Positions 21,429 to 64,000 of a DNA stretch of 64,000 nt are shown here, piece by piece. The position numbers and the translations under genes were made by a program. The notes under the pieces were generated by a model that was not told the origin of the DNA, ran no database searches, and was given only the letters and a program-made list of their open reading frames with translations. Location: NCBI RefSeq assembly GCF_963921235.1, contig NC_086097.1, positions 152,212,001 through 152,276,000 on the forward strand, in the 5' to 3' direction. The first letter of the stretch is position 1; each line of letters starts with the position of its first letter. The stretch is from Mobula hypostoma. Lineage: Eukaryota.

Positions 21429-21683
21429 TGTGGTGGCTCGCCCACGCAACAAACAAACTGGCTCCAGCAGTCGCCGGCGAACCTGCAGTCAGCGGCAACC
21501 GAGAGGAATTTGAGTGCGCGGCAGACCTTGGCCCGGAGGCCGACGTCACTTCCGCCCCATAGAGAGCGGGGGTTGCTGGGAGCGGGTACATAAGCACGCG
21601 CGGATTCAAACAGAAAATGGTTCAACGCAACCCTGCTCGATTCAGTGTCTTCTTTTCACTTGTAGCGTATCAGCGCGCCTACA
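21429..21683 (+). repeat. 5' LTR of the CsRn1-like element
   Basis: TGTGG...CTACA, direct repeat of 25245-25498. Confidence 0.92.
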
Positions 21684-21684
21684 T

Positions 21685-21697
21685 TGGTGACCCCGAC
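21685..21697 (+). promoter_or_regulatory. Primer-binding site, tRNA-Trp
   Basis: TGGTGACCCCGAC, complementary to the 3' end of vertebrate tRNA-Trp (same start as the avian sarcoma-leukosis virus PBS). Confidence 0.85.
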
Positions 21698-21699
21698 TG

Positions 21700-22330
21700 T
21701 CCAAATGGGATTTGGACCAAAGATGATCGACTCTTCACCTGTTCACGCAGTTTCGCTAAAACTGCCAACTCTCTGGATGCTGCGACCACGCGTGTGGTTT
21801 GACCAAGTAGAAGCCCAGTTCTAGATTCGGCAGATATCTTCGGATTCCACACATTACTATTACGTGGTGAGCTCCCTTGACCAGGAGACAGCCGCACGGG
21901 TTGTTGATTTCATACAGTCACCCCCCGAAGAAGGCAAATATGCAGCGTTCAAAGCGCTGCTCATAGAGACCTTTGGCCTCTCCTGCTGTGAATGGGCCGT
22001 GCGGTTACTGCATATGGATGGCCTGGGCGACCGCGCACCATCAGCCCTGATGAGCGACATGCTAACACTGGCAGACGGCCATAAGCCTTGCCTGCTGTTT
22101 GAACAGATTTTCTTGGAGCAAATGCCAGAAGACATCCACCTCCTGCTAGCAGATGAAGACTTCAGAGACCCGCACGGATATGCTTTGGCGCGCCAAACAG
22201 ATTGGCGGAACCACCATCAGAATTAGTGCTGTGGCACGGCCGAAAGCCCAGCCCTCCCGCACCCCAGCAGTGGAGCACCGCCGTGATAGCCTCCTCTACA
22301 TTTGGGACAAGCTCTCCAGGTGAAGATTCC
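21700..22330 (+). pseudogene. gag: Gypsy gag remnant
   Basis: VVSSLDQETAARVVDFIQSPP..KYAAFKALLIETFGLS..LGDRAPSALM..IFLEQMP. Frameshifted; no zinc-finger region found. Confidence 0.75.
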
Positions 22331-25230
22331 TGGTGGACACGGGGGCGGAAATCAGTGTTGTACACCCCTCGAGCCACGATACCCGAACTAGAAGAACAGG
22401 ACCAGAACTTACGGCAGCCAACAGCAGCATCATCCGCACCTATGGCACAAGAACCATCCCCTTGCAGTTCGGTTCCAGCCACTTTACATGGACATTTACG
22501 CTGGCCGCAGTGTCACAGCCATTGCGAGGTGCAGACTTCCTCCGTCTGCACTGCCTGCTCGTGGATTTGAAGGGACGACGATTGGTCGATGATTGGTCCC
22601 TCGGTGAGGCCAGGTTACCGGCCCCGCACCTGGACTCCATCACTTATTCCGACAACGAGTTCGCCAGAGTGCTATCAGAGTTCCCATCTATCATCATGCC
22701 GCAGTTTTCTTCAACAAACCCCAAGCACGGCATGATGCACCACATCCCCACACAGGGACCTCCCCTTCATGCCCGGGCCCGCAGGCTACCACCCGACAAG
22801 CTCCGCCTCGCGAAGGAGGAATTCAAGATGGAGGAGATGGGGATTGTGCAGCGTTCCGACAGCCCATGGGCCTCCCCACTTCATATGGTGCCCAAGTCCA
22901 CTGGAGGGTGGAGACCGTGTGGCAACTATCGGAGGCCGAACGATGCCACCACATCCGATCGCTATCCGGTACCACACATCCAGGACTTTATGGCCAACCT
23001 GCACGGGGCGCGCATCTTTTCGAAGATTGACCTGGTCCGAAGGTATCATCAGATCCCAGTCCACCTGGATGATGTACCCAAGACGGCCCTCATTACCCCC
23101 TTTGGCCTGTTCGAGTTCCTCAGGATGCCATTTGGGCTCAAAAACACAGTGCAGACTTTCCAGCGCTTGATGGACGCAGTAGGGCGAGGTCTGGACTTTC
23201 TGTTCATCTGCCTGGATGACATACTTATCGCCAGCCTCTCCCGCCAGGAACATCTAGCACATCTACACCTGCTCTGCCGCCGCCTAAGCGACTATGGCCT
23301 GGCTATCAACCCCGCCAAGTGCCAGTTCAGCCTATCCGCCACCGATTTCTTGGGACACCGGATCGACCGCCATGGAGCTGTTCCTCTGCTGGCCAAAGTT
23401 GAGGCCATCCACCAATTTGCCAGGCCCAACACCGTTAAAGGCCTGCAGGAACTTGTTGGGATGGTTAACTTTTATCACCATTTCCTACCCTCGGCAGCCC
23501 GGATCATGCGGCCCCTTTTTGGCTTGATGTCCGGCAAGGTCAAAGAGGTCACATGGACAGAGGAGGCGACGGCAGCTTTCGAACAAGCCAAGAACACGCT
23601 AGCAAATGCCACACTCCTAGTCCACCCCAGGTCGACGTCCCAACTGCCCTCACTGTGGATGCCTCCGATGCGGCAGAGTACAGCGCTCTTGACAGGGAGC
23701 TGCTGGCCATGTACCTTGCCATCTGGCACTTCAGGTATTTCCTGGAGGGGAGAGAGTTCACGGTCTGCACAGACCACAAGCTCCTCACTTTCGCATTTGC
23801 CAAAATGTCGGACCTGTGGTCAAGCCGCCAACAACGCCATCTGTCGTACATCTCGGAGTTTACCACCATGATCAAGCTCTTCTCCGGGAAGAACAACATA
23901 GTGGCAGACGCGCTGTCCTGACCCTCCGTCCAATCAGTGTACTCTCTGTCTCCGGGGGTGGATTATGCGACGTTAGCTGAGGCGCAACAGCTGAGGCGCA
24001 ACAGCTGGACGGAGAGATGCCGGCGTACTGAACCACAGTCTCAGGACTCCGCCTCGAAGACATACCCATTGGGCCCAAAGGTAAGTGGCTCCTTTGCGAT
24101 GTGTCCACCAGGCAACCTCGGCCCATTATCCCGACTGCTTGGAGGCGCCGCGTTTTTGACACCTTGCACGGTTTAGCCCACCCTTCCATCAGGGCGACCA
24201 TCCGGCTGATCGCAGACAGGTTTGTGTGGCACGGCCTATGCAAGCAGGTCGAGCACTGGGCCAGGACATGCACGCACCGTCAAACATCCAAAATCCAGAG
24301 GCACGTGAGGGCCCCACTGCAACCCTTCCAGCCGACACATAGGTTTGAACGTCCACGTAGACATCATCGGCCCGCTGCCGGTTTCGAGAGGAGCGAGATA
24401 TCTGTTCACCATGGTGGACAGGTTCACGAGGCGGCCGGAAGCTGTCCCACTCGCTGACACGGCCGCGGAGACATGCGCCAGAGCCCTGATTACCACCTGG
24501 GTGGCACGATTCGGACTCCCAGCCCACGTCACTTCAGACAGAGGTGTACAGTTCACATCAGCTTTGTGGTCTGCACTGGCACAACTCCTCGGAACCCAGC
24601 TCCACCGGGCGACTGCTTACCACCCGCAGTCTAACGGCCTGGTGGAATGTTTCCACAGGCACTTGAAGTCGTCCCTGATGGCACGCCTCTGAGGGCCAGA
24701 CTAGGTGGACGAACTCCCCTGGGTGCTGCTTGATATCCACACGGCACCCAAGGAGGACCTGGCCGCATCATCGGCCGAACTGGTTCACGGTGCCCGCTCA
24801 CAGTTCCCGGTGAGTTTGTGCCAGCACCCCGTGGCCCGGAGGACACATCTGCTGGGGTCCTAACTAAACTCCAGGAGCGGCTTGGAACACTTGCTCCAGT
24901 CCCGACATCCTACCACGGAACAACATCCTCTTTCGTGCCCAGGGACCTACAATAGAACAAGTATGTTTTCATTCGCCAAGGCGCGCACAGACCACCCCTG
25001 CAGCGACCATACGAGGGACCCTACAAGGTGGTGCGCCATAATGGAGCGACCTGCGTTCTCGACATCGGTGGTCGGGACGAGACTTTTAGCATTGACTGTC
25101 TCAAACCGGTGCATCTGGATCTTGAACGCCCGGTTGCGGTACCACCCCGACGACGTCGAGGCCGACCACCTAAAAGAACTGAGAATGTGCAGGCTGTGGA
25201 CTCTGCACCTCCTATCGCCGGATCTGGAGG
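22330..25230 (+). pseudogene. pol: Gypsy pol (PR-RT-RH-IN), disrupted
   Basis: PR FLVDTGAEISV; RT RMPFGLKN and CLDD (YLDD mutated); RH VDASD..DRELLA..TDHK with an internal deletion; IN HGLAHP, VHVDIIGPLP, TSDRG, NGLVE. Confidence 0.9.
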
Positions 25231-25244
25231 GGGGGAGTGGGTCA

Positions 25245-25498
25245 TGTGGCAGCTCGCCCACGCTTCAAGCAATCCGGCTCCAGCAGTCGCTGGCGAACCC
25301 GCAGTCAGCGGCAACCGAGAGGAATCTGAGTGCAGGGCAGACCTCGGCCCGGAGGCCGACGTCGCTTCCGCTCGCAAAGAGCGGGGGTTGCTGGGAGGAG
25401 GCACTTAAGCACGTGCGGAGTCAAACAGAAAACGGTTCAACCTGACACTGCTCGAATCAGTGTCTTGTTTTCACTCGTAGTGTATCAGCATGACTACA
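25245..25498 (+). repeat. 3' LTR of the CsRn1-like element
   Basis: TGTGG...CTACA, downstream of the PPT. Confidence 0.92.
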
Positions 25499-28400: not shown

Positions 28401-28529
28401 CTTCTCTTTCCTCAAAGCCTCTCTATATGTTAGACACAAGGAATTCTGCAGATGCTGGAAATTCAAGCAACACACATCAAAGTTGCTGGTGAACACAGCA
28501 GGCCAGGTAGCATCTATAGGAAGAGGTAC

Positions 28530-28565
28530 AGTCGATGTTTCAGGCCAAGACCCTTCATCAGGACT
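28530..28565 (-). ncRNA. Minimal type I hammerhead ribozyme motif (best preserved copy)
   Basis: Minus strand AGTC-CTGATGA-AGGGTCTTGGCCT-GAAA-CA-TC-GACT: helix I AGUC/GACU, both core boxes, NUH triplet AUC. Confidence 0.75.
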
Positions 28566-28999
28566 AACCGAAAGAAGAGCTAGTAGGAGACTCGAAAGAG
28601 GGAGGGGGTGATCCAAAATGATAGGAGGAGGGGGAGGGATGGAACCAAGAACTGGACAGTTGATTGGCAAATGGGATATGAGAGGATCGTGGGACAGGAG
28701 GCCCAGGGAGAAAGAAAAGGGGGAGGGGGGGAAAAACCCAGAGGATGGGCAAGGGGTATAGTGTAAGGGACAGAGGGAGAAAAAAGGAGAGAGAAGAAAA
28801 GAATGTGTGTATATAAATAAATAATGGATGGTGTACGAGGGGGAGGTGGGAGATCCTGTCCCATGATCCTCTCATATCCCTTTTGCCAATCAACTGTCCC
28901 GCTCTTGGTTCCATCCCTCCCCCTCCTGTCTCTCCTATCATTTTGGATCTGCCCCTCCCCCTCCCACTTTCAAATCTCTTACTAGCTCTTCTTTCAGTT

Positions 29000-29030
29000 A
29001 GTCCTGACGAAGGGTCTCGGCCCAAAACGT
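29000..29030 (+). ncRNA. Hammerhead motif, degenerate and truncated near the cleavage site
   Basis: AGTC-CTGACGA-AGGGTCTCGGCCC-AAAA-CGT; GAAA changed to AAAA, consistent with CpG decay. Confidence 0.6.
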
Positions 29031-29110
29031 GGGCCTATATGTTAGATCTGGCTTTACTCCATGCACTTCTTTCACTGCTCTATCGCTCTGGGTCCCATCC
29101 CCCTTGCAAA

Positions 29111-29120
29111 TTAGTTTAAA
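29111..29120 (-). promoter_or_regulatory. Candidate -1 frameshift slippery site at the CR1 ORF1/ORF2 junction
   Basis: GGT TTA AAC TAA in the ORF1 frame; ORF2 is in the -1 frame. Confidence 0.55.
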
Positions 29121-29244
29121 CCCTCCTGAACCATGCTAGCAAACTTACCTGCAAGGATATTGCTCCCCCTCGAGTTCAGGTGCAACCCATCCAATCTGTA
29201 CAGGTCCTACCTTCCCCAGAAGAGATCCCAATGGTCCAATGATT

Positions 29245-29392
29245 TCTGTTTACAAGCATGTATATAATTTTCAATTTACGTGAACATACATGCGTGCCAC
29301 ATTAAAGTAAAAATGAAGTTAGACACGTTTATCCCAGTCAGCCCTTGTTTTTCTTTATGTTAGTTTTACGTTTTTGAGTTACAAAACATGAC
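29245..29392 (+). repeat. LTR fragment related to the Mag-like LTR at 59810-60061
   Basis: Shares TTAAAGTAAA..AAGTTAGAC..GTTACAAAACAT with 59970-60060. Confidence 0.45.
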
Positions 29393-29559
29393 AATTACCT
29401 CAGACTGTCAAAGTGCGAGGTAAAGATCTCATGGAACACCCCAGCCAGTTGACCAGCACCAATCTTTAGTACTCAACCAGCTACTCCATCTGAACTGGAT
29501 GCTTTCTGTGGGATTACACTCTTGAGGGATCCCATTTCAAAATTTATTCTCCCTTAAGA

Positions 29560-29740
29560 CTCAACTAAAACACCTGTAAACACCAGGAGAAATTTACACA
29601 GGCCAATTAATCTACATCTTGGACATCTTTGGGACTGTGACAAGGGGAGCATAAAGGCTCTACACTGGATTTCATAATCAAATACAGGTATCTGGTGCTC
29701 TGGGACAATGATTCAACTCGCTGCATGACCGTACCATCCT
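29560..29740 (-). mobile_element. Decayed HE1/V-SINE-like element
   Basis: The reverse complement contains ATTAATTGGCCTGTGTAAATT and a tRNA-like head remnant. Confidence 0.45.
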
Positions 29741-31449
29741 AAAATCACAGCTACTCTGACTATGGCCTGTAGCAATATCCAGTGGCGCTTCACAGCCCCC
29801 CCCCCCCGCCCGCTTATATCAAAAATCTATCTATCATTCTATTAACTTGAGTATTTGACTTCAATGATCTTTTGAGAAAGAGAATTGCGAAGACTTGTGC
29901 TCTTACAAGGGAAAACTGTTTGAGGCAATTACCTTGCATGAAACTCAAGTGTGTCCTGCATCAAACATTGATAGACAGAACTCATTTCTAATCTGACCTT
30001 CAGTGATGGGGGTGGGAGGAAATATTCACTTGCTTCTGTTTTAAACTAGCAACACCTTTTTTTATGGTGATCTCTAGTTCTAAATACATTGGAATTGGGA
30101 GCAACATTCAATTCAGATGACATTGTTGGCTTAATGTTGAATTTAACGATCACCTGCTTGTCGGTTCACAGCTGATATTGGTGGACAATGCTCAGACCAA
30201 AATAAATCTAGACTGCAATTCTCATATCACTGCTACTTGATTTCATCACTGATTCTTGCTTTTCAGCGGAATGCTGCCTGACATCATTCCATCTATCAGT
30301 TTTTACTAAAAACAATGAGCATGTTTGAATAATGAAAAAGACCATGAAATGTATTTCTGTTGATAATGAAGTGTATGAATCACAGGTTTAAAGAGTAACC
30401 GGAGGGCGTGTGTCAAAATCTGAATAATGCAGGTGTGGATGCTTACTAAAAGGCTATGAGCTCAGATCTGACCAGGGAGAAGCAAATGGAGGCCTTTCCC
30501 CATCAACAAAGGTCAAATTTGAATTGAGTTCTGTCTATCAACGTCTGGTGTTCGGCACACATGAGTTTCCTGTAAGTTAATTGCCTAGCATTTGACACCT
30601 AATTTAGTTTGAATAGGCCAAGGCAGAGAATGGAAATGTCAAACAACAGCAGTGTGCTCATTCTTCTGAGATTCGAGCATTGCTAGATTGATGGAGAACT
30701 TTAATAGGCATCCTAGCACTGCCTTTAATATGTGCCATGTATGACAAAAGGACATTTAGAACCATTATATCACAAAACTTGTCAAGCAGAAGCTGCTTTT
30801 AAAATAAACTTTTGGCCACGGTTCTCACTGATATACTCAAAATGCCAAAAGCTGCTACCCAGGCCATTTCTATTTTGGCACTGGCAGCCAAAGTACAATG
30901 TCTTCATCTCTGCTTGGTCATATTAAAATCCCAGCAGTACAACTGGCCATACATCGACTAACTTACATTGCAGGCAACTCTTCAAAAGTTGTATCTCTGT
31001 AATTAGTATTATAAACACAAGCGAGATTCTGGTCTGTTAACTCTTCTGTATCAATTAAAACTTCCTCATGGACATTGAAGATTTTGGAATTATAGTTACA
31101 GCTGTAATGTAGACAATACAGCAGTAAATTTACCCACAGGAAACCTATGCCAACAACAATGAAATGAATGAATTTTTGATGGGGTAAAAATTAGCATTGC
31201 AAATATTGTTCACACACCAGAGAGGATTCATTAGTACCGTGTTTACACGATTAAAATCTTTTAATTCTTCTCTTTTTTATTGGTTGCAGGCCATGCTGGA
31301 AAATTTTGAATGGGGTGGGAATGGTGTCTAGTTCAAGTTCAAGTTTAATTATTGTTCAGCCATGTGAATACCTATGATTACAGAGAAATGAACAGCATTC
31401 CTCAAGGTGCTAAACTCTGTACCAACAGCTGTACGCAGCACAAGGCACA

Positions 31450-31980
31450 CAGACATCCCACCCTGCAAAAACTCATTTCAGGGAGGTAGCACGATCAATT
31501 TGCAGGAGACTGCTGGAAGTTCCAGGAGAGGTGGGATGTCTGCAACAGAGTAGCTCCTTAGCAACTAGCCAGATAGCTTAAATAACTTTAAACTGGGTTA
31601 ATGAACGAATGACACCTGTTAAACTCACCTCAATATGTCTTTTACAGTCTTAACCCACCATGGGCAATAGAAAAGTCACTGTTGCAAACAGTGCAGTGAG
31701 CAACACTGTCATTATTTTGACCCCTATTAGGCAGGGGTACACTTTAGTGTAGTCTGGGGTGACGTACGTTTTATATTTTCTTTTTTTGGAACACTCTCCC
31801 ATGGCACGATCTCTCTCTCTCTCTCTCGCTCTCTCTCGCTCTCTCTCTCTCTCTCTCTTGCTCTCTCTCGCTCTCAAAAAAAATTGATTTCTGGGATATT
31901 GTACATAATTTGCAGGCATCAGGGAGCCACGATTAATATGCGGGAGACTCCCGGAACTTCCAGGAGAGGTGGGATGTCTG
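31450..31980. mobile_element. Non-autonomous DNA transposon (hAT-like CAG..CTG termini)
   Basis: TIR CAGACATCCCACC / GGTGGGATGTCTG, apparent 6-bp TSD GGCACA (31444-31449 / 31981-31986). A related copy lies at 42976-44284. Confidence 0.75.
31810..31875. repeat. (CT)n/(CTCG) microsatellite inside the MITE
   Basis: Read directly from the sequence. Confidence 0.9.
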
Positions 31981-32608
31981 GGCACATATAGCATGTGTAA
32001 GATAGCAGTAAACATACAGTCACATCAAAAAGATATAATAAGCTCAAGTTCCTGAATCCATGGATGTTGTTGCAAGACCAAGCCTGCAGCATTCTGCGGA
32101 CGAATGCGATCCAGCTTGCTTTCTGCCAATCAAACACTGGAGGGCAGCACCAATGGAGGAGGTCAGCCCCCAATCTAGTATGGACGCCATGCCACACCAC
32201 ATCCAGCATCACCTCTCCTAGGCGACTGTAACAGGCGACACTGCTGCGTGAAGCATAGTCCATGCTACAACCGAGGCCACGCAGTTCGCGTGCCATTGGT
32301 CTTGTCAACAAAGCAGTGAAGCGGACTTGCAGTATTCTACATTACCAATGTCCTACAGGGTCTTGTGATAACAAGAAAAATGTGTGCTCATTTTGAACTG
32401 ATTGTCCAGAGGATACTATGTCAGTTCCCAATTAACAGTTGAAAGGTCCAAACTGCACAGTGAGCCCAAATATAAGGCTGACAAATACCCAACTGGTCAA
32501 TTAATTATGCAAACACGAGGAAATCTGCAGATACTGGAATTTCAAGCAACACACATCAAAGTTGCTGGTGAACGCAACAGGCCAGGCAGCATCTCTAAGA
32601 AGAGGTAC

Positions 32609-32644
32609 AGTCAACCTTTTGGGCCGAGACCCTTCATCAGGACT
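32609..32644 (-). ncRNA. Degenerate hammerhead motif
   Basis: Minus AGTC-CTGATGA-AGGGTCTCGGCCC-AAAA-GG-TT-GACT. Confidence 0.55.
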
Positions 32645-33617
32645 AACTGAAAGAAGAGCTACTATCTCGCCCATTTCACGCACATCTGCTTTCACCCCAT
32701 CCTCCCACCACTCCACTAGGAATAGGGTTCCCCTTGTCCTCACCTACCATCCCACCAGCCTCCGGGTCCAACATATAATTCTCCGTAACTTCCGCCACCT
32801 CCAACGGGATCCCACTACTAAGCACATCTTTCCCTCCCCTCTCCACTTTCCGCAAGGATCGCTCCCTACGCGACTCCCTTGTCCATTCGTCCCCCCCATC
32901 CCTCCCCACTGATCTCCCTCCTGGCCCTTATCCTTGTAAGCGGAACAAGTGCTACACATGCCCTTACACTTCCTCCCTTACTACCATTCAGGGCCCCAGA
33001 CAGTCCTTCCAGGTGAGGTGACACTTCACCTGTGAGTCAGCTGGGGTGATATACTGCGTCCGGTTCTCCTGATTCAGCTTTCTATATATTGGTGAGACCC
33101 AAAGCAGACTGGGAGACCATTTCACTGAACACCTACAGAGAAAGCAAGATCTCCCAGTGGACACACATTTTAATTCCATGTCCCATTCCGACATGTCTAT
33201 CCACGGCCTCCTCTACTGTAAAGGTGAAGCCACACTCAGGTTGGAGGAACAACACCTTATATTCTGCCTGGGTAGCTTCCAAGCTGATGGCATGAACATT
33301 GACTTCTCTAACTTCCGCTAATGCCCCACCTCCCCCTCGTACCCCATCCATTATTTATTTATATACACACACTCTTTCTCTCTTTCTCCTTTTTCCCCCT
33401 CTGTCCCTCTCACTATACTCCATGTCCATCCTCTGGGCTTCCCTCCTCCCACTTTCTTTCTCCCTAGGCCTCCCGTCCTATGATCCTCTCATATCTCTTT
33501 TGCCAATCAACTGTCCAGCTCTCGACTCCATCCCTCCTCCTCCTGTCTTCTCCTATCACTTCTGATCTCCCCCTCTCCCTCCCACTTTCAAATCTCTTAC
33601 TATCTCTTCTTTCAGTT

Positions 33618-33652
33618 AGTCCTGATGAAGGGTTTCGGCCCAAACGTCAACT
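33618..33652 (+). ncRNA. Degenerate hammerhead motif
   Basis: AGTC-CTGATGA-AGGGTTTCGGCCC-AAA-CG-TC-AACT. Confidence 0.55.
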
Positions 33653-33719
33653 GTACCTCTTCCTACAGATGCTGCCTGGCCTGCTGCGTTCACCAGCAAC
33701 TTTTATGTGGTCAATTAAT

Positions 33720-35340
33720 GTGTGTCCCTGAAAATGGATATTCACCTCCCCCCAGAAGTTATGTTTTATTGTTTTACAACATTGAATCACAGTGGATTTA
33801 ATTAGTTGCTTTTTACACTGATCAACAGAAAAAGAGTCTTTAGTGTCAAAGTGAAAAACAAATCTCTACAAAGTGATTTAAATTAATTACAAATATAAAA
33901 CACAAAATAATTGGTTGCATAAGTATTCACCATTCCAAGTCAGTATTTAGTAGATGCTCTTTTGGCAACAATTACAGCCTTGAGCCTATGTGGATGGGTC
34001 TCTATCAGCTTTGCATATCTGGATGCTCCAAATTTTCGCTATTATTTTTTTACAAAACTGCTCAAGCTTTGTCAGATGGCATGGGGATCGTGAGTGAACA
34101 CTCCTTTTCAAGTCCAGCCACCAATTTTCAATTGGATTGAGGTCTGTACTCTGACTTGGCTACTCCAGGACATTAACTTTGTTGTTTTTAAGCCATTCCT
34201 GTGTAGTTTTGGCTTTATTCTTGGGGTCATTGTCTTGCTGGAAAACAAATCTTTTTCTAAATCACAGACTATGTCAAGTTTTCCTCCAGGATTTTCCTGT
34301 ATTTTGTTGTATTCATTTTACATTTTACCCTCTACCTTCACAGGCCTTCCAGGATCTGCTGCAGTGAAGCATCCCACAGCATAAGGCAGCTACCACTATG
34401 CTTCACGTTAGGGATGGTGTGCTTTTGATAATGTACCATCTTTCATTTATGCTAAACATAGCATTGAGTCTGATGGCCAAAAAGATCAATTTTGGTTTAA
34501 TCCGACCATAGAACCTTCTTCCAGCTGACTTCAGAGTCTCCCAGATGCCGCCTGGGAAACTCTAGCTGAGATCTCATGTGAGTTGCTTTCAACTTTTTGC
34601 CACTCTCCCATAAAACTGTGACTGGTGAAGCACCTGGGCAACAGCTCTATGCACAGCCAACCCGCCCCCATCTCAGCCACTGAAGCTGTAACTCCTCCAG
34701 AGATGTCATAGATCACCTGGTAGTCTCCCTCACTAGTCCCCTTCTTGCACGGTCACTCAGCTTTTGAGGATGGCCTGCTCGAGGCAAATTTACAGTTGTG
34801 CCATATTCTTTCCATTTTTTGATGATTGACTTAACTGTACTCAAAGGGATATTCAGTGACTCTTTTTGTATCCATCTCCTGACTTGTGCTTTTCAATATC
34901 CTTTTCGTAGAGTTGCTTGGAGTGCTCTTTTGTCTTCACGGTGCAGTTTTTGCCAGGATACTGACTCATCAGCAGTTGGGCCTTCCAGATTCCGGTGTTT
35001 GAGCTGTTTTGTAATGAAAAATGGGGGAAAATTACAGCATCTAGATGTGCAAAGCTAATAGAGACCCATTCACACAGACTCAAAGCTGTAATTACTGTCA
35101 AAGGTGCATCCACTGAACACAGACTTGAGGGGGAGAATACTTATACAATCAATTATTTTGTGTTTTATATTTGTAATTTATTTAGATCACTTTGTAGCGA
35201 TCTGTTTTCACTATGACATGAACGAGTTTTTTCTGTTGATCAGTGTCAAAATAAAACAAATTAAATCCACTGTGATTCAATGTTGTAAAACAATAAAACA
35301 TGCAAACTTCCAAAGGGGTGAATATTTTTCATTAGCATTG
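33720..35340 (-). mobile_element. Tc1-family (IR/DR type) DNA transposon, decayed transposase
   Basis: ~210-bp TIRs (33720-33931 / 35130-35340). Minus strand HSKQL..EKHKSGDGYKK, MLWGCF, FQQDNDPK, DLNPIEN. Confidence 0.88.
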
Positions 35341-37782: not shown

Positions 37783-38643
37783 TGTTACGTACCCCGTAAC
37801 TGGGTTGCCAAACCAGCAGAAATGGATCACTCAGTTGGAGTCTGGAGTACTAGAACTAAGAAAGTTTTATTAAAGAAACAAGCAACACAGTAATCGAAAG
37901 GATAATAAATGCAACAGTTCAGCGATGATAAACACACATGTGCACAGAAGTAAGATAACAGCATCAATCAAGCTCTATCGTTGTCTAGGGGTAAAAGACC
38001 AATTTCAAAATGACTCAAAGTTCAGTCCAGTTAGTAGTTCAGTTCGCAGTAATCATTGCCATGGCGATGGACAACGTGGGGGAAGAGAGAGATAGAACAG
38101 GAACAACTGATCATTCAGAACACTGCTTCACTCACAGACCAGCGAGATGGCTCACAAACAGCTTTTGGGCGGGTCCTTGGTGATGTCACCTGAGGTCACC
38201 GACTGTGACTCCTCCTCCAGATGCGGTCAATCCTCTGCAGTGAACCCGGCACCCAGGCAAGGGCGGACACACACCGGGTTCCCGCTGATCGTACCTTTCC
38301 ACCCTGATCGTTGTCCGATACTTCTCACCCACTCGTGAGAAGCGCACCGCTTCCAGGGTCTCGTTACCTCGGGTGGCGTGTGTGCCTGTCTTAGCGAACC
38401 TGTCCCTTTTTATCCCCCTGCTGGGGTATCGCCTGTCCGTCACTTCAAACAGTTCAGGGTTCAAAGGGGGGAGCCGCTCCAGACAGCTCTTCCTCCCACA
38501 TCCCTTCATTACACATCTCCAGACGCTGCTCCATTGTTCCTTATCTCTCCTTCCCCTGAGGGCAGGTGGCAGACCAACTGCTGATGTCACTGATGCTAGC
38601 CCAGGCCAGCAAACATCTTAATTTTATGTGTATTCTCGTAACA
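37783..38643 (-). repeat. 3' LTR of the Gmr1-like element
   Basis: Near-identical to 41741-42602. Minus-strand TATA-like GATAAAAAG near 38410 and AATAAA near 37868. Confidence 0.95.
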
Positions 38644-38923
38644 CTTCCCCCCTTTAAGGATTTTTACCGAGAGGTAAAAATTACAAACATGACTACATTA
38701 TTTGATACATACACAATATACATCTTTATCAACCATTTGGCTAACACAGCGAGTTTGAAGCTGTCAACACCTTGACAGACAGTCATCACATTTTCTGTTC
38801 CTTTTACACGTGTTATTAATAATCCCTTAGACCAGGCTCCAACTCAGCAAACTTCATAGTGGCCAAAAACACTGATGAATTGCGACCAATGTAACCTCTC
38901 ATTTGGTTTTGTCCCGGACCACA

Positions 38924-40291
38924 CTAACAAGGGTCGTCCCATTCCGACTCAGTTTTCTCTCGCAAGGGCTTAGTAGGAGGGGGACGGGTATTGACCGCAG
39001 AGTTATTGCAAAACTTCCTGCAGTACCCCATCATCTCCAAAAGCCTTCTGAGGGCCCTCTTGTCTGTCGGGGTTGGGAGGTCAGCGATAGCCTGCACTGT
39101 AGCTTGCATCGCTGCCAGCTGCCCCTGTGTCACTACAATTTCCAGGTAAGTGACCCTCGTGTGGCCGAATTCATTTTTTTCAAGGTTCACTATCAAGCTG
39201 GCTTCAGACAGCCGTATTAAATTGCCAATACACACCTCTGTGGTCATCAGCTCTTTAGTCACTGAATTACTCAATATATATGAGTGTTCTTTACTGGGCT
39301 GCCCTATTGTAACAGACATAACCCAACGTCCCAGTTCTTTGCATTTCCTCGGGACAATCAAACACATAGGTGCGAGTCGTTTAATTACTCCTTCTAAAGA
39401 TTCGCTTTGTTCGGGGATTAAGGGAGAGACCTTATCAGTAGACCTGGCCAAAACAATAGCCTTCTCCCATCTGACCGATCCCATCCTAATCTTTTCAAAA
39501 TGGTTCTTTTCTCTTATCAGGGGGCCCCTAGCTTCATTGATTTCCACGCTAACACCGACTAGGTTTGTTAGCATATCAAAAGCCGGTGACCGTCTCAGTT
39601 CGCGTCGGTCATGATCAATAACATTTTTCCCCCTGGGCAGCCGGTAAATCTCTTTCATGATTCCACCAACTGTTTCCTCCAGCACCGCAAAATGTCCACC
39701 GGGGGGTACCTCGTGGGCCATGTTAAAAACCTCATCCCCATAACTCTTTTGCACCACCCCCCACTCCTCATCTGCGGATGCTGTACTTGATTTCCCTTTC
39801 TTCCTTAGCACCTCCTCATCCGCACAATAGCTTGTCAAGGCTGTGTCAGAGAGAGCGGTCTCGGCAAAAACCATCAGCCCCTCGTCTCGCTCCTGCGTCT
39901 GCACAAATTCTTTCCTGGCTACTGCTACGTCCGTCCCAGCTCCCTCACTACCTCTTATCTCACTACACCCTGTCTCATACAAGGTTGGCAGAAATGTTTC
40001 AGCCAAATTCACCATCGCGGGCGGGGCCTCCATGCTGGCAGGCTGACCCGTCAATCTCACGACTGGGAACACGATTCCTCCGGCGATGTCATTATCGAGC
40101 AAGACTTCCACGTCTTTCATCGGTAATTCGGGCCTCACCCCGATCGTGAATAGTCCAGAGACCAGGTTGCTCTGTAAATGTATCCGGTGCAAAGGGACTG
40201 ACTCTGTCCCTTCCCCAACACCTTTGACCTCTACCTCCCCAGTCTGGGTCTCTGAGCTAAACTCTACTACACTCTTCAGTCTTAGTGACTG
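38924..40291 (-). pseudogene. pol: Compacted pol remnant (PR C-term, IN HHCC start, RT thumb)
   Basis: MAHEVPPGGHF (IN), then LIVNLEKNEFGHTRVTYL..QAIADLPTPTDKRALRRLL..GYCRKF (RT). Same frame as gag. Confidence 0.75.
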
Positions 40292-41641
40292 TCACGCTCC
40301 CGTGTCTCTCCAGATCCGCACTGGAACTGGTTTTAACCCCTCCTTCACTGACACCAGTCCGGCCGAGATAAACCTCTCGCGCCCTTCCTGGACTTTTTCA
40401 GACCTGTCCTTCCCTAGCGGTTCGCTTAACAGCTCGATACAGCCATTCAAAATTTCCGCTTTTCCTTTCCCCGTCTCCTTCCTTGGGGCAAAGCACCTGG
40501 ACGCAAAGTGTCCGACTTTCCCACAATTATAACAGACGACCCCAGGAGACTTCCTACCAGACTGCTCCCGGTCTACCTTATCCTTTTCACTAGTCCCCGG
40601 CTTACTTTCTGACTTTTCCGGCGGACTCTCCCCTCCGTCCTGACTACCCTTCTGGTAGCCTTTACTCGGGGCAAACTTCATTTTATGCGTCAACGCATAC
40701 TCATCCGCTAACTTAGCAGTTGCGGCTAACGTGGCTGCCTCTTTCTCATCGAGGTAGGGTCTCATACCCTCAGGGACACAACCTTTAAACTGCTCAATCA
40801 GAATCAGCTGCAGCAGTCTGTCGTAATCCCCCTCTACCCCTTTCGAGGCGCACCAACGCTCACAATATGTTTGCATCTCACGAGCAAACTCCAAATACGT
40901 GCGGTCCCACTGCTTCCTCGCATTCCGGAACCTCTGCCGGTATGCCTCCGGGACCAACTCATAAATCCTGAGGATGGCCTCCTTCACCACCTCATACTTC
41001 TGGGCATCTTCCGCGGATAAAGCGGAGTAAGCTTGTTGGGCCTTCCCTTTCAGTACACTCTGAAGTAACACAGCCCACTTATCCCTCGGCCATTCCTGAC
41101 TTATAGCCACCTTTTCGAAGTGGAGAAAGTACCGATCCACGTCGGTATCGTCAAAAGGGGGAACCAGCCTTACCTCCTGGGTCGCCCGGAACCCTCCACC
41201 TTGGTTCGGCACGAGCCCCTGCTCGGCCCTTATCTTTAACTTCTCCAGCTCAAATTCTCTTTCCCTCTGTTTCTCCTCTCTCTCCAACTGTCTGTCCCTC
41301 TCTTGCCTTTCTACCTCTTTCTCTCTCTCCCGCCTTTCTAACTCTCTCTCTTCGTGTTCTAACTGCCGTACCCGGAACTCGTGCTCGAGTCTCAGTTTTT
41401 CAAGCTGTACCTGTACCGCGTCTCCAGCAGGTTTTTCAATAGACACCATCCCCAGCTCACCTTGGGGAAACACACCTTTAGATACATAGTGCTCTACAAT
41501 AGCTCTGTGTATCTCCTCTCTCCTCATTGTCGACTTCACCTTAGCAAGATTCACCCGTTTGGCCACAGCTATCAATTCCGATTTCCTGGCATCCTCTAAT
41601 GCCTCCAAGGTCGGCGCCTTTATAAATTCCTCAACCTCCAT
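40292..41641 (-). CDS. gag: Gag of the Gmr1-like element (coiled coil, SCAN-like capsid CTD, CCHC knuckle) running into protease DTG
   Basis: 449-aa open frame: VPEAYRQRFR..QLILIEQF, CYNCGKVGHFASRC, IWRDTGA*. Confidence 0.88.
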   Translation of the reverse strand: MEVEEFIKAPTLEALEDARKSELIAVAKRVNLAKVKSTMRREEIHRAIVEHYVSKGVFPQGELGMVSIEKPAGDAVQVQLEKLRLEHEFRVRQLEHEERELERREREKEVERQERDRQLEREEKQREREFELEKLKIRAEQGLVPNQGGGFRATQEVRLVPPFDDTDVDRYFLHFEKVAISQEWPRDKWAVLLQSVLKGKAQQAYSALSAEDAQKYEVVKEAILRIYELVPEAYRQRFRNARKQWDRTYLEFAREMQTYCERWCASKGVEGDYDRLLQLILIEQFKGCVPEGMRPYLDEKEAATLAATAKLADEYALTHKMKFAPSKGYQKGSQDGGESPPEKSESKPGTSEKDKVDREQSGRKSPGVVCYNCGKVGHFASRCFAPRKETGKGKAEILNGCIELLSEPLGKDRSEKVQEGRERFISAGLVSVKEGLKPVPVRIWRDTGA

Positions 41642-41717
41642 TTCTGCTGTTTGTCTTTTCTTTCTTTCGGGAATTTTAACCCAATCAATTTACTCCGTCC
41701 CAAATTTAGCGTTCAAA

Positions 41718-41736
41718 ATCCCGGACGAGAACCCCA
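41718..41736 (-). promoter_or_regulatory. Primer-binding site, tRNA-Pro-like
   Basis: Minus TGGGGTTCTCGTCCGGGAT versus canonical TGGGGGCTCGTCCGGGAT. Confidence 0.8.
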
Positions 41737-41740
41737 CTTA

Positions 41741-42602
41741 TGTTACGTACCCCGTAACTGGGTTGCCAAACCAGCAGAAATGGATCACTCAGTTGGAGTC
41801 TGGAGTACTAGAACTAAGAAAGTTTTATTAAAGAAACAAGCAACACAGTAATCGAAAGGATAATAAATGCAACAGTTCAGTGATGATAAACACACATGTG
41901 CACAGAAGTAAGATAACAGCATCAATCAAGCTCTATCGTTGTCTAGGGGTAAAAGACCAATTTCAAAATGACTCAAAGTTCAGTCCAGTTAGTAGTTCAG
42001 TTCGCAGTAATCGTTGCCATGGCGATGGACAAGGTGGGGGAAGAGAGACAGAGAGAACAGGAACAACTGATCATTCAGAACACTGCTTCACTCACAGACC
42101 AGCGAGATGGCTCACAAACAGCTTTTGGGCGGGTCCTTGGTGATGTCACCTGAGGTCACCGACTGTGACCCCTCCTCCAGATGCGGTCGATCCTCTGCAG
42201 TGAACCCGGCACCCAGGCAAGGGCGGACACACACCGGGTTCCCGCTGATCGTACCTTTCCACCCTGATCGTTGTCTGGTACTTCTCACCCACTCGTGAGA
42301 GGCGTACCGCTTCCAGGGTCTCGTTACCTCGGGTGGCGTGTGTCCTGCCTTAGCGAACCGGTGCCTTTTTATCCCCCTGCTGGGGTATCGCCTGTCCGTC
42401 ACTTCAAACAGTTCAAGGTTCAAAGAGGGGAGCCGCTCCAGACAGCTCTTCCTCCCACATCCCTTCATTACACATCTCCAGACGCTGCTCCATTGTTCCT
42501 TATCTCTCCTTCCCCTGAGGGCAGGTGGCAGACCAACTGCTGATGTCACTGATGCTAACCCAGGCCAGCAAACATCTTAATTTTATGTGTATTCTCGTAA
42601 CA
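41741..42602 (-). repeat. 5' LTR of the Gmr1-like element
   Basis: Adjacent to the PBS; direct repeat of 37783-38643. Confidence 0.95.
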
Positions 42603-42975
42603 CACTAAATATACTTTCTCTGGACTTCAGTCACTGTAATCTGCAGTCTGTAATTTCCCTTTGAGAGCTATGCTTTTGAACTGTCTGAACGATCTGATTT
42701 TTTTGCAATATCCTGAAGGATTCAGCAAAGCGGACTCTCAAGAAATCAGGGACAGACGTGGTGGCCATTGCTGGAGCGGACTTTGGGCTGATTGAAGAAA
42801 CGGGGCCTGGATCAAAGGATGAAAAAGAAACTGATGTTTAGCTGATTTAAGCACTGAGCTAGATTAAAAAGATTAAAGCATCAAGCTGAGGGCGAAAGAT
42901 GAACCGACGTTTAGCTCACTATTCCATGAGGCTCTACTTGCCTCAGCACTGACCTGACTCTACAGCTGTGGCCTG

Positions 42976-57256: not shown

Positions 57257-59169
57257 TATAGTCATAATCATAGTAATACTTTATTTATCCTGAGGGAAAT
57301 TGGTTTTCTTTACAGTTGCACCATAAATAATTAAATAGTAATATGTAAATTATGCCAGGAAATAAGTCCAGGACCAGCCTATTGACTCAGGGTGTCTGAC
57401 CCTCCAAGGGAGGAGTTGTAAAGTTTGATGGCCACAGGCAGGAATGACTTCCTATGATGCTCAGTGTTGCATCTCGGTGGAATGAGTCTCTGGCTGAATG
57501 TACTCCTGTGCCCACCCAGTACATTATGTAGTGGATGGGACACATTGTCCAAGATGGCTTGCAACTTGGACAGTATCCTCTTTTCAGACACCACCATCAG
57601 AGAATCCAGTTCCATCCCCGCAACATCACTGGCCTTACGAATGAGTTTGTTGATTCTGTTGGTGTCTGCTACCCTCAGCCTGCTGCCCCAGCACACAACA
57701 GCAAACATGATCGCACTGGCCACCACAGACTCGTAGAACATCCTCAGCATCGTCCGACAGATGTTAAAGGACCTCAGTCTCCTCAGGAAATAGAGATGGC
57801 TCTGACCCTTCTTGTAGACAGCCTCAGTGTTCTTTGACCAGTCCAGTTTATTGTCAATTCGTATCCCCAGGTATTTGTAATCCTCCACCATGTCCACACT
57901 GACCCTCTGGATGGAAACAGGGGTCACCAGTGCCTTAGCTCTCCTCAGGTCTACCACCAGCTTTTTCTCATTAAGCTGCAGATAATTCTGCTCACACCAT
58001 GTGACAAAGTTTCCTACTGTAGCCCTGTACTCAGCCTCATCTCCCTTGCTGATGCATTCAACTATGGCAGAGTCATAGGAAAACTTCTGAAGATGACAAG
58101 ACTGTGCAGTAGTTGAAGTCAGAGGTGTAAATGGTGAATAGAATGGGAGACAAGACAGTCCCCTGTGGAGCCCCAGTGCTGCTGATCACTCTGTCGGACA
58201 CACAGTGTTGCAAGCACATGTACTGTGGTCTGCCAGTCAGGTAATCAAGAATCCATGACACCAGGAAAGCATCCACCTGCATCACTGTCAACTTCTCCCC
58301 CAGCAGAGCAGGGCAGATGGTGTTGAACGCACTGGAGAAGTCAAAAACCATGACCCTCACAGTGCTCGCTGGCTTGTCCAGGTGGGTGTAGACACGGTTC
58401 AGCAGTTAGATGATGGCATCCTCAACTCCTAGTCGGGGCTGGTAGGCAAACTGGAGGGGATCTAAGTGTGGCCTGACCATAGGCTGGAGCAGCTCCAGAA
58501 CAAGTCTCTCCAGGGTCTTCATGATGTGAGAGGTCAATGCCACCGGTCTGTAGTCATTGAGGCCCCTAAGGCGAGGCGTCGTCAGCACAGGGACGAGGCA
58601 GGACGTCTTCCACAGCACAGAAACCCTCTAGAGCCTCAGACTCAGGTTGAAGACATGGCAAAGTACTCCACATAGCTGAGGTGCACAGGCTTTGAGCACC
58701 CTGTTACTGACACCATCCAGTCCTGCAGCCTTGCTTCGGTTGAGATGTTTCGGCTGTCTTCTCACCTGTTAAGCTGTGAAGCCCACCGTGGTAGTTTCGT
58801 GTGGGGAAGGGGTATAGTCATGAGAGCAGGGTGGGGGACTGTGAGGAGGGGTAGGAGGGGCGAGTGGAATATGTGTTGGTTCGGAGCCGACAACAGATGA
58901 CTCATGTGGGGGATGGGTAAGGGTCACAATGTCAAATCTGTTAAAGGACAGGTTAAGTTCATTGGCCCTGTCCACACTGCCTTCAGCTTCTCTGTTGCTA
59001 GTTTGCCGGAACCCAGTGATGGTCCTCATCCCACTCCAGACCTCTCTCATGTTGTTCTGCTGGAGTTTCCACTCAAGCTTCCTCCTCTACCTGTCTTTAG
59101 CCTCCCTGATCCTAGCTTTCAGGTCCCTCTGTATTGCCCTCAGCTCCTCCCTATTTCCATCTCTAAACC
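57257..59169 (-). mobile_element. Rex1/Babar-clade LINE, 5'-truncated, relatively young
   Basis: DYRPVALTSHIMKTLERL, DPLQFAYQ, FDFSSAFNTI, GAPQGTVLSP, YKYLG..WSKNTEAVYKKGQSHLYFLRRL. Confidence 0.9.
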
Positions 59170-59809: not shown

Positions 59810-62375
59810 CGTTGTTTATTTAATATTTAAGTAATCTTGTGTGTGTATGTGTATGTATGTATATATATATTGATTAAGCCTTCCTGCTTATTTAAATAAT
59901 TATGGGTTATATGTAAAAAAAACATTAAGTGCATATTCTATCATGCAGCCACATGATACAGGGGCATCTCACTTAAAGTAAACTCAAAGTTAGACCTGCA
60001 TTTCAGATTCCAGTTTCTTCTTTTGAATTAGATTAATGTTTTGAAGTTACAAAACATAATATTCACAATGAGGTATTTTTTTAAATGAACCTGAGACGAC
60101 TACTGACCTGTTCAAGCACAGCAAGATAGTTGAACTAAAAAAGGCAAAGCTAGGAATGGCAAGATAAAAAAAAAAGCAGCAGGGTGTAGCCTAGTATGTG
60201 CATAGATGTTGAGTTTTAATAAAAATTCATAAAACAGAAGAATTGATGGGTTCATAAAGAGAAAGGAAGGATTCACTGGTTCATAAAGAATGAATACTGG
60301 GAGATGATAATTATTTTAAAAAATGGCTGCATCAGAAAGATTGAGGAGCTTGATTACACAATGGGTAATTGGCTCATGTATACTGAGCTACTGGAACAGA
60401 ATTTTGAAGCAAATGAAATAGCCAATGAAAAATGAGTATCAATTTGGCTGAGTTCATTGGGTTTAAAGACATACAGTTTGCTTTGAAATTTGACTGTTCC
60501 AACCAATCTATCAGAAATTAGCTTTGCTAATATTGTAAAGTAATGCAGGAACACTTAGAACCAAAGCCATTGTTGATTGCAAAACACTTTAAGTTCCATA
60601 AGTGAAACTAAAAGAGAAGGGGAATCCATTTCAGCAATTATGGCTGAATTGAAGTGATTGTCTAAGCATTGTCATGGGTAATGGGCTTAATGATGCACTA
60701 AGTAACCATTTAGTTTGCAGAATCTTATAAGAAAGCATTCAAAAACAGCTCAACACTGAAGCACAGTTTACATTCAAAAGAGCAGTTGAAATTGTCATTT
60801 CAATGGGAACTGCAGACAGAGGTACAATTGAGTTGCATTCAGGAATGAAAAAGAGCGTGAATTGCAGCATCTAAACAGAAACCACCCTGGTCAAACAAAT
60901 TTGTGTTAACAATTATGGCAGGGGCTCACATACACAAAGCAAATGCAGATTTAAAGGTGAAACTTGCAGAAAATGCAACAAAGTGGGACAAACACATCGA
61001 GAATCTCAGGCAGTGAAAAATAAATGGTCTGCACAGGAACAGAAATAAACTAAAATGTCAAGTTCCAGTTTCAGGATGAGCACTAATTTGCATGCTGTTG
61101 ATGTAAAATCTGATAATGATGAGAGTGACACAGGACTGAGTACTCTTGAGATTCACAGCGTGAAAATTAACAATAGATAAGCAATATAGCTTATGCCAGA
61201 AGCGAATGGCAAATTAATTAAGATGGAATTGGACATTGGTTTAGTTGTTTCAGTCATACCACATAATGAGTTTGAGAGGCATTTCAAAGATGATAAACTA
61301 AAGCCAGCAGATATCCAACAAAAAACTTATACTGGTGAAAGGACAACTCCTGTGGGAATGACATTCTTGTAACTGTGAAATACAACAACCAGTAAGCCAC
61401 ATTGAGCTTGTATGTGGTAAAAATAGAAAGACCAGCACTCTGGGTGCGTGATTCACTGAGACATCTACAAGTTGATTGGAGATCCATCTACAATTTGCAT
61501 GCCACATTCCTTGCAATGAAAGCGAATTAAGAGAGATACTAGATGATGCCACAACTGACCCCATGCCGAACACCATGACAGTTGCCCAATAGAGGATAAA
61601 CAGGTGTTGGTTCCATCCACTATGCCTCTGGTTGGAAAGTATGTTGGACCAAGGAAGGACCAAGCTGCTCAGATGAAGCGTGAAAGTGATGAAAGCAGTT
61701 GTCAGACTGCAACAGTTTTGTAGACAGCATATCTGGGAAAGCTGCTGATAAGTTAATCAGGCAATTACTTGTGAAATGTGGCTTGCTTTTAAGCTGAAAG
61801 AGAGCTCAAGAAGCTTCTGGAAAGTTGCACGCATTCAGCTTTTGTGAGTATAAAGAACCAGAATCCAGTCTGCATGCATTAAGGTTATTGTGTGAACTCC
61901 ATGGGAGGCAAAAAGCTGCTAGTAAAACTAAATGCAAAGACCACAAAGCCCAGCTGGATGAACGCAAGGCCAAACAGAAAGAAGTCAATGGAGATGCAAA
62001 AACAGAAGATGTTGTGGATCAGGAAACCAAGAGGAGAGATTAGATCATAAAGGGAACAATAGAAGGATTAAGAAGAGAATGCTCCAATGAACTGAATGCA
62101 CCTTCCCAAGATCAAGATGCAGAAACTAGAAGAATAAAAGGAGAAGAAAGGCATCTGGAGCTGTTAGATCCACTTCCTGTAGTCTCGGAGTCAACTACTA
62201 CAACCACGGAGGAGGCCCCAGAACCCGAGATTACTTCACAGTCACAAGGCTCACCTGCCAAGCAGAGTGATCTCCCTTGTCAGGAAAGACATTATTCCAC
62301 ACGACTAGGAAATTCTCCACAGCAATTACATTTTTAGGCCTGAATATGTCCATTTTAAATTTATTTTGCTGAGAA
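59810..62375 (+). mobile_element. Decayed Mag-like Ty3/Gypsy element (LTR, gag, PR, pol tail) carrying a host mRNA fragment
   Basis: gag from 60323 (NWLMYTE..FEANEIANEK), paired Cys/His knuckle remnant near 60905-61010, PR MELDIGLVVSVI at 61223, pol C-tail ERHYSTRLGNSPQQL near 62285-62335. Confidence 0.75.
61604..62150 (+). pseudogene. RBM25: Processed RBM25 (RNA-binding motif protein 25) fragment, RRM region
   Basis: Translates across lesions to VLVP..LVGK..RKD..ISGKAADKLIRQLLVKCG..S*KRAQEASGKLHAFSFCEYKEPES..ALRLL..KAQLDE.KAK..DQETKRRD*IIKG.IE..RE.SNELNAPSQD, collinear with the vertebrate RBM25 N-terminus as I recall it; no introns. Confidence 0.88.
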
Positions 62376-64000
62376 TCACCTGAACTCAAAAGGTACTAAT
62401 ATCCTGGCGGGATTGTTTAATATAGCTGTTAGGGAGGGTTTAAACTAAGTTGGCAGGGGGAAGGAAACCAGGGTGTTAGGGTCGAGGAAGAGGAAAATAG
62501 AAATAAGTCAAAAATACTATGCAGCAAAGATGGCAAGAAGGACAGGCCGGTGAATATACAGGATAATTTGCTGCAAAATAGGAATATAGCAAAATCGGCA
62601 ACAGATACTGATCTAAATGTACTGTACTTAAATGCACGCAGCATTAGAAATAAAGTGGATGACCTTGCTGCACAGCTACAGGTTAAAAGATATGACATTG
62701 TGGCCATCAGTGAGTCATGGCTAAATGATGGATGTGATTGGGAGCTGAATATCCAAGGATACACAGTGTAGAGGAAAGATAGGGAGGTAGGTAAAGGGGG
62801 TGGCGTGGCCCTGATGGTAAGTAACAATATCAAATCAATAGAAAGAAGGGACATAGGATCAGAAGAGGTAGAATCCTTATGGGTCGAATTAAGAAATGGC
62901 AAGAGTGAAAAGATACTAATAGCAGTTATATACAGGCCTCCAAACCACAGCCAGGATGTGGACTACAACTTGCAGCTGGACATAGAAAAAGCGTGTCAGA
63001 AGGAAAATGTCAAGATAATTATGGGGGATTTTAATATGCAAGTGGATTGGGAAAGTCAGGAAGGTTATAGATCTCAGGAGAGGGAGTTTGTAGAATGCCT
63101 ACAGGATGGCTTTTTAGAGCAGCTTGTCCAGAAGCCCACCAGTGGACCGGCTGTTTTGGATTGGGTGTTGTGTAACGAACCTGAAGCGATTAGGGAGCTG
63201 GAGGTAAAGGAACCCCTTGGAAGTAGTGATCATAATATGATTGAGTTCAGTTTCAAATTTGAAAAGGAGAAGCCGGTATCAGGTGTATCGATATTTCAGT
63301 GGAACAGGGGAAATTAGTGGTACGAGAGGGGAACTGGCCCAAATCGATTGGAAAAGTAAGCTAAATGGAGGGACGGCAGAGCAGAATTGGATGAAATTCC
63401 TACAAGAAATAAGGAAAATGCAGGAAAAATATATTCCAAGAAAAAAGAAAATCATGAATGGAAAAATGGCACAAATGTGGCTAACGAGAGAGGTTATGGC
63501 AAAAAGAAAAGGAACGGCGTACAAGGAAGCAAAAATTAGTGGGAAAAATGAGGACTGGAAGACTTTTAAAAACTTACAGAAGGAAACTAAGAAAGTCATT
63601 AGGAAAGAAAAGATGAATTATGAAAGGAAGTTGGTGATTAACATAAAAAAGGATATTAAGAGCTTTTTTTAAATATATGAAGAGTAAAAGAGTAACAAGG
63701 GTAGATATGGGACCGATTTAAAATGATGCTGGAGAAATTATAATGGATAACAAAGAGATGGCGGAGGAACTGAATGAGTATTTTGCATCAGTCTTCACAG
63801 TGGAAGACATGAGCAATATACCTGATAGCCAGAGGTATCAGGGAGTAGAATTAGGTGCAGTCAAGATTACTAGAGAGAAAGTGCTTGGGAAACTAAGTGG
63901 ACAAAGAATAGATAAGTCTCCCGGTCCGGATGAGGTGCACCCAAGGGTTCTGAAGGAGGTGGCTTTGGAGATTGTGGAAGCATCGGAAATGATCTTCCAG
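62376..64000 (+). mobile_element. CR1 LINE (ORF1 3' end, APE, linker); continues beyond the window
   Basis: HLNSKGTNILAG..REGLN*, LYLNARSI, ISESW, GDFNM, SDH, DKSPGPD. Confidence 0.92.
62439..62448 (+). promoter_or_regulatory. Candidate -1 frameshift slippery site at the CR1 ORF1/ORF2 junction
   Basis: GGT TTA AAC TAA; the -1 frame is open and AUG-free up to LYLNARS. Confidence 0.55.

Follow-up and report, generated by a model that had tools for sequence, protein, structure and literature searches.

A Gypsy element family that seems to carry a piece of spliced RBM25 mRNA in place of reverse transcriptase, RNase H and integrase

A captured fragment of the conserved splicing-factor gene RBM25 seems to have given rise to a major non-autonomous Gypsy family common to several species. 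Capture of host mRNA by an LTR element is a known mechanism; what is rarely met is amplification of this scale and age. The copy described here lies in a window of 64 kb (the whole stretch of DNA analysed), which consists mostly of LINEs and LTR elements, and the protein queries taken from the window matched vertebrate proteins. The preliminary description of this DNA had treated the locus as a capture event in its own right, in which reverse transcriptase (RT) switched to a co-packaged cellular mRNA. What stands of that claim is the spliced RBM25 piece, which replaces RT, RNase H (RH) and integrase (IN) in sense orientation and without LINE hallmarks; what does not stand is the identity of locus and event. 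The two junctions of the locus recur in at least three organisms across a very large family, of which the copy seen here is one decayed descendant. The features are as follows.

59811-60061, plus strand: probable 5' LTR with a short microsatellite inside, limits approximate, assigned from its position upstream of gag only
60325-61554, plus strand: decayed gag, protease and linker of a K02A2.6-type Ty3/Gypsy polyprotein, from tblastn of P0006-P0015 and the linker sequence of relatives
61555-61603, plus strand: 49-nt spacer common to other family copies, ending in CAG before the RBM25 similarity, from contig cover and the lack of a significant pol or RBM25 match
61604-62150, plus strand: intronless internal RBM25 coding piece (pre-RRM linker, RRM and following helical block), from HMMER, tblastn and the exon edges crossed
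62138-62151, plus strand: purine-rich 3' junction zone, a candidate microhomology about two codons before a vertebrate exon edge, from three-frame reading and single-exon ORFs
62149-62337, plus strand: C-terminal polyprotein tail of the element, ending in the terminal motif of its relatives, from tblastn and alignment to these
62338-62376, plus strand: beginning of the element's 3' untranslated part, interrupted by the CR1 insertion, from loose ends of X1 contigs
62377-64000, plus strand: CR1-type LINE, a later insertion that runs off the window, from blastn matches to LINEs elsewhere in the window and from ORFs

The host element was identified from its gag-protease part. In tblastn, residues 3-396 of the full-length relatives P0007 and P0008 mapped to 60325-61506 with 39-61% identity, those of P0007 being spread over three frame blocks from 60325 to 61500. 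When 60665-61369 served as the query (X at stops), 15 proteins among 427 candidates matched, headed by fish K02A2.6-like polyproteins at 45-48% identity. The parent family encodes a single polyprotein in the order Gag-PR-RT-RH-IN: Pfam detected protease, RVT_1, RNase H and integrase in P0007, and RT, RNase H and integrase in both P0007 and P0008. The window copy has gag, protease, linker and C-terminal motif in common with the fish polyproteins P0007, P0008 and P0010 (45-48% identity over the gag-protease query) but lacks the RT, RNase H and integrase that these retain, and is thus non-autonomous. By tblastn, no residue of the relatives' RT, RNase H or integrase mapped to 61506-62400 above noise. 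Residues ~418 to ~1242 of P0007 (RVT_1, RNase H and rve) are gone from the window copy, which amounts to ~820 residues (~2.5 kb) lost between linker and tail.

Downstream of the host piece, 62149-62334 aligned to the C-terminal end of six of the seven relatives tested and elsewhere in the seventh; the alignment (62 residues) exceeded all 300 shuffles for three of the seven. The relatives' terminal motif recurs in the window at ~62290-62334. A word-indexed protein search with the tail, a weak blank, returned none among 24 candidates. The RBM25 piece has replaced element sequence rather than interrupted it. In these respects the preliminary description was borne out: it had placed gag and protease up to ~61557, where tblastn and linker comparison now give 60325-61554, had noted the absence of RT, RH and IN, and had seen the pol C-terminal tail resume after the host piece. 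Its reservation that the two flanks might belong to different elements is answered by the same relatives, which match both gag-protease and tail, and by the similar contig depth over protease and tail. Of the 170 proteins that tblastn matched to the region, not one joins RBM25 to gag-protease or to the tail.

The outer limits of the element are less sharply drawn. Its start probably lies near 59811, and the limits 59811-60061 follow what we take to be a resemblance to the LTRs of such elements. Within the window, this presumed LTR has no second copy apart from a 44-nt, 80% match (E 0.002) at 29348-29389 to its 3' end (60015-60057), which may be what remains of another LTR of this family. On the other side, 67 X1 contigs have loose ends behind 62345 and continue unlike the window. 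The LINE inserted there is presumably a CR1, a name we give it from its ORF sequence; the polypurine tract and 3' LTR, if kept, would lie beyond the window end. DNA motif scans of metagenome, viral and prokaryote collections gave no match, nor did Rfam, and a bacterial promoter scan, irrelevant to a eukaryotic host, stayed at chance level.

The cargo was assigned to RBM25 by several searches. HMMER returned 240 matches at E<=0.001 among 1.84 billion representatives (best 8e-37); of ten looked up, four had the RBM25 name in their cluster and the rest were unnamed or 'hypothetical'. By tblastn, residues 53-181 of Bos mutus RNA-binding protein 25 (P0026) mapped to 61604-61992 with 46% and 66% identity (E 7e-30), and residues 52-203 of P0021 to 61717-62151 with 56% identity (E 4e-44). 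Similarity spans the pre-RRM linker and the post-RRM block, which carries the assignment beyond a generic RRM; other RRM proteins (PDB) scored only E 1e-8 to 0.3. P0023 and P0026 possess RRM plus PWI domains (Pfam). The same tool, run on five window pieces, gave a sub-threshold RRM_1 match (16.8 bits, cutoff 20.7) and a chance YmzC match only, and a word-indexed protein search, again a weak blank, found none among 179 candidates. The piece lies in sense orientation and is truncated at both ends, stopping ~600 codons ahead of the RBM25 stop; neither the C-terminal part of P0023 or P0026 nor any other RBM25 part matched anywhere in the window at E<0.01.

Intron loss was judged from exon edges of other vertebrates, for which single-exon ORFs and a cattle gene model served as guides in place of the organism's own RBM25. 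Among the 63 short matches used (each at most 165 residues), 20 start at the AFGFCEY block without upstream sequence, most of them leaving similarity after the KKxxNG motif, and 19 consist of the next block only, stopping at KK[ED][ED] before V. Such matches look like single exons read from genomic contigs. Exactly this second block is omitted by the cattle gene model. The edges fall at 61831 and 61993, and the RBM25 piece crosses both with no DNA between, ending about two codons before a third. Three short matches that start at a KCG motif point to a possible additional edge close to 61774. Derivation from a spliced mRNA is supported on this reading of vertebrate intron positions, and a single-exon origin is rejected because both edges are crossed. 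The intronless, same-sense RBM25 coding piece of ~550 bp reported earlier at 61604-62150 is upheld by the P0026 and P0021 matches together with the two crossed edges, as is its distinction from a non-RBM25 segment or a lone exon. A related-locus scan yielded five loci, distant at 29-50% identity, which do not help with intron positions in vertebrates.

We propose, with a probability of about three in four, that the piece was acquired by a double template switch onto co-packaged mRNA, followed by trans-mobilisation. The capture would have taken place in an ancestor of three or more related organisms, where a virus-like particle would have enclosed spliced RBM25 mRNA along with Gypsy RNA. RT, proceeding in minus-strand order, would have left the element template ~60 codons before the C-terminal end, copied ~550 nt of the mRNA and rejoined the element just after the protease linker, so that the ~2.5 kb of RT-RH-IN were replaced. 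The chimera would have kept both element ends and could have drawn RT and integrase in trans from intact relatives, a presumed route to an abundance that is itself observed. The copy in the window then decayed without constraint and received the CR1 LINE, as its DNA shows.

The locus combines the marks of an LTR-mediated retrocopy: it is intronless across exon edges, is flanked by a single element whose internal ORFs are replaced, and has neither poly(A) nor target-site duplication (TSD) beside its 3' truncation. At the 3' junction, the purine run can be read in one frame as RBM25-type KEKK and in another leads on into the frame of the tail, which makes a microhomology plausible at this site. 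The run at 62138-62151 also resembles a polypurine tract, and one may speculate that it favoured a switch or internal priming.

Weighing against the double switch are the spacer, for which it gives no explanation, and the position of the RBM25 similarity, whose ends fall on or close to exon edges (the 5' one presumably); splicing would account for this too. A route modelled on read-through capture of retroviral oncogenes would take both into account. An element in or near RBM25 would have produced a hybrid transcript, the 5' junction arising by deletion and splicing onto an RBM25 acceptor and the 3' junction by template switch, with the spacer derived from an intron or a lineage-specific exon and amplification following. 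The similarity does start abruptly after CAG at P0026 residue 53, which we take to be an exon start in mammals. The spacer, in turn, matches neither pol nor the N-terminus of bony-vertebrate RBM25: all 18 tests were not significant (best 19 of 300 shuffles), and its derivation from pol or from an upstream RBM25 exon of bony vertebrates was accordingly set aside. It is purine-rich, unlike a splice acceptor tract. Against splice-assisted capture, the spacer could represent an upstream exon that has diverged in this lineage, which would place the switch point inside the spacer, and template switches near exon-exon junctions also occur among the retrocopies in the accessible text of Tan et al. 2016 (PMC5131818). 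We regard this route as unlikely.

Less probable still is a LINE-made RBM25 retrocopy (or DNA-level cDNA recombination) into a Gypsy element, with later deletion of pol, the 3' end of the retrocopy and its poly(A), and subsequent amplification. The window is rich in LINEs, and a 2026 survey, in the part of the preprint available, links non-mammalian retrocopies to CR1/Tx1, with SUDS3 among the top parents in cartilaginous fishes (10.64898/2026.06.26.734816). Such an origin needs two events, and the piece ends ~600 codons short of the RBM25 stop, lies in sense and has replaced element sequence. The hallmarks of a processed pseudogene (3' poly(A), TSD and an intact mRNA 3' end) are missing from it. 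Because 61501-62400 contains no A-run of 6 or more and the longest word common to the two junction zones is 5 nt, there is neither poly(A) nor TSD around the RBM25 piece, in agreement with the preliminary description. An AATAAA at 62133 was dismissed as a poly(A) hallmark; it falls inside the coding run and is not followed by an A-tail.

The chimera is present in many copies. Contigs were compared with 61200-62375 at 80% likeness in runs X1 (organism A), X5 (organism B), X9 (organism C) and X21; part of the stretch is contained in 20 runs from nine studies, and the counts exclude X10-X20 (shares <0.1). Matching contigs numbered 10854 in X1, 10317 in X5 and 8646 in X9 and covered all 30 bins. 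In the RBM25 piece, the window copy is contradicted by 124, 123 and 113 differing contigs at 61643, and by 125, 123 and 114 at 62094 (X1, X5 and X9, respectively; 128 is the highest count attainable). On the same scale most of the piece's listed sites have ~75-125 differing contigs, with 14-57 next to the copy's indels. The spacer sites 61558 and 61560 have 72-85 in each of the three runs.

Depth and junction-spanning contigs tell how much of the family is chimeric. The RBM25/protease depth ratio in X1, X5 and X9 is 0.52-0.62 for peaks and 0.26-0.41 for medians, and the depth at 61558 relative to 61533, that is, the share continuing across the 5' junction into the spacer, is 0.56-0.66. Roughly a third to two thirds of the family's sequence is chimera. 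The preliminary description had suggested a search for more copies with the same junctions, and diverged contigs do bridge both junctions in three organisms. Over the 5' junction these include X9 record 29 (65 differences) and X21 record 12 (28 differences), over the 3' junction X5 record 24 (33 differences). Both sides are also linked by listed joints in each of the four runs; among the contigs listed, none spans the whole chimera. In X1, 6078 of the 10854 contigs are less than 90% alike, and the copies are mostly below 90%. From the many differing contigs in the RBM25 piece, the depth ratio and the diverged contigs over both junctions, we conclude that the chimera is a large non-autonomous family. 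The same two junctions occur in at least three organisms, in copies presumably dispersed and each with unique flanks.

Peak depth is 1925 and 1670 times the depth of the locus's own contig. Contig depth is no copy number, being inflated by overlap and deflated by divergence, and the chimera copies probably number hundreds to about two thousand. A contig of organism B covers the 5' junction with no substitution and 8 gap letters and is probably the orthologous insertion. Together with an X1 contig that spans this junction without a difference (X1 is possibly the source sample), it led us to reject an assembly artefact. That the depth reflects duplication, tandem or segmental, of a single chimeric locus, or many free RBM25 pseudogenes, instead of transposition is very improbable. 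In favour of this reading, depth does not tell where copies lie, and the whole element is spanned by none of the listed contigs; against it, only one chimera copy lies within the 64-kb window, depth at the 5' junction agrees with the RBM25/protease ratio, and the copies are mostly <90% alike.

Run X21, whose label RNA is a guess, has an RBM25/protease peak ratio of 1.8 as against 0.5-0.6 in the other runs, and host mRNA would explain its deeper RBM25 part. It contains diverged contigs over both junctions, and some chimera copies may be transcribed; the contigs show neither strand nor level.

The window copy itself is decayed, as had been described: the gag-protease-linker block (60325-61554) has 12 stops spread over four frame blocks, and the RBM25 piece 2 stops and about 4 frame breaks. 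It differs from the other copies at 175 of 1176 places in X1, 172 in X5 and 164 in X9 (~15%), mostly by transitions. We inspected the 25 RBM25-piece differences that were best supported among 237 rows over the whole stretch, which is not a random sample; at these the other letter makes up a median 94% of depth. Twenty of the 25 alter the encoded residue; for 16 of them the other copies have a vertebrate RBM25 residue where the window copy does not. Other copies also differ in length where the window copy changes frame, the spacer included. The breaks are thus mostly private decay. By this comparison of residues, the cargo of the spreading copies is nearer RBM25 than that of the window copy. 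The latter decayed after insertion, without constraint, and makes no protein today.

Whether the cargo was more than a passenger is a separate matter. A putative Gag-protease-RBM25(RRM) fusion of the master copies, or its RNA, might have aided splicing avoidance, export, packaging or escape from silencing; we consider this doubtful. An abundance about equal to that of the autonomous parent would follow if the cargo had helped the element, and the idea keeps some room because other copies are nearer RBM25 (16 of 20) and differ in length at the frame breaks. Capture shortly before a burst would explain the same facts without selection.

If the cargo did help, the Gypsy elements of this lineage would take up host regulators again and again, in the manner of oncogene-carrying retroviruses, and many counted 'retrocopies' in such genomes would be transposon families. 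In acutely transforming retroviruses, replication genes are replaced by spliced host coding sequence and propagation depends on a helper. The chimera resembles them in replacement and helper dependence; it differs in having no env and no infection, in germ-line spread and in a cargo protein that is putative.

Among retrotransposons, the closest counterparts are the LTR-mediated retrocopies that Tan et al. 2016 (PMC5131818) report, in the text accessible, from fly, mosquito, zebrafish, chicken and mammals. As in the chimera, a partial intronless host piece, truncated 5' and 3', replaces internal ORFs between element sequence on both sides, lacks poly(A) and TSD, and can undergo secondary retroposition as a non-autonomous element. 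That text gives microsimilarity, the hallmark of the double-switch model, at 25 of 29 fly junctions and de novo junction inserts of 2-26 bp, shorter than the chimera's 49-nt spacer. Nine fly retrocopies occupied 18 insertion sites there, with secondary copies in two fly cases; these retrocopies are young and at one or few sites, whereas the chimera shows >100 variants at single sites in three organisms and makes up a large share of its parent family. Maize Bs1, as summarised in the same text (via PMC5131818), is likewise an LTR element with spliced host exons, all copies sharing the switch points. A Zea genome contains 1-5 copies of it, its exons come from three parental genes, and it is reported to make a functional hybrid protein; the chimera has one identified parent and hundreds or more copies, and the copy in the window is dead.

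RBM25 is absent from nine of the ten supplementary files of Tan et al. 2016 (PMC5131818), and from the main text of the genome and retrocopy papers searched, whose supplements may list it. We found no description of an RBM25-carrying element in the literature, although subscription papers, repeat libraries and supplements may contain one. Hundreds of independently decaying copies can date the capture and test for selection on the cargo during spread. Families of this kind would inflate counts of retrocopies and of 'RBM25-like genes' and be credited to LINEs.

Several other elements share the window. On the minus strand, 37783-42603 is a young LTR element with terminal repeats 97-99% identical. 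Its gag, an open frame of 465 aa, carries SCAN and zinc-knuckle domains (Pfam); a second open frame, of 455 aa, has weak RT likeness only (~30% over 80 aa) and no Pfam match. The whole resembles a non-autonomous SCAN-gag element with a pol that degenerated but stayed open. Another Gypsy element at 21429-25371 is GC-rich (0.56), lies between 127-nt direct repeats 89% alike (candidate LTR parts) and retains remains of RT, RNase H and integrase at 22324-24683. Directly upstream of the chimera, 57379-59100 on the minus strand holds decayed LINE RT frames, which we take to resemble Rex1/Babar. Short direct and inverted repeats, 72-95% alike, cluster at 28434-35301 with partners at 14806-15405 and are probably nested SINE or LINE 5' parts.
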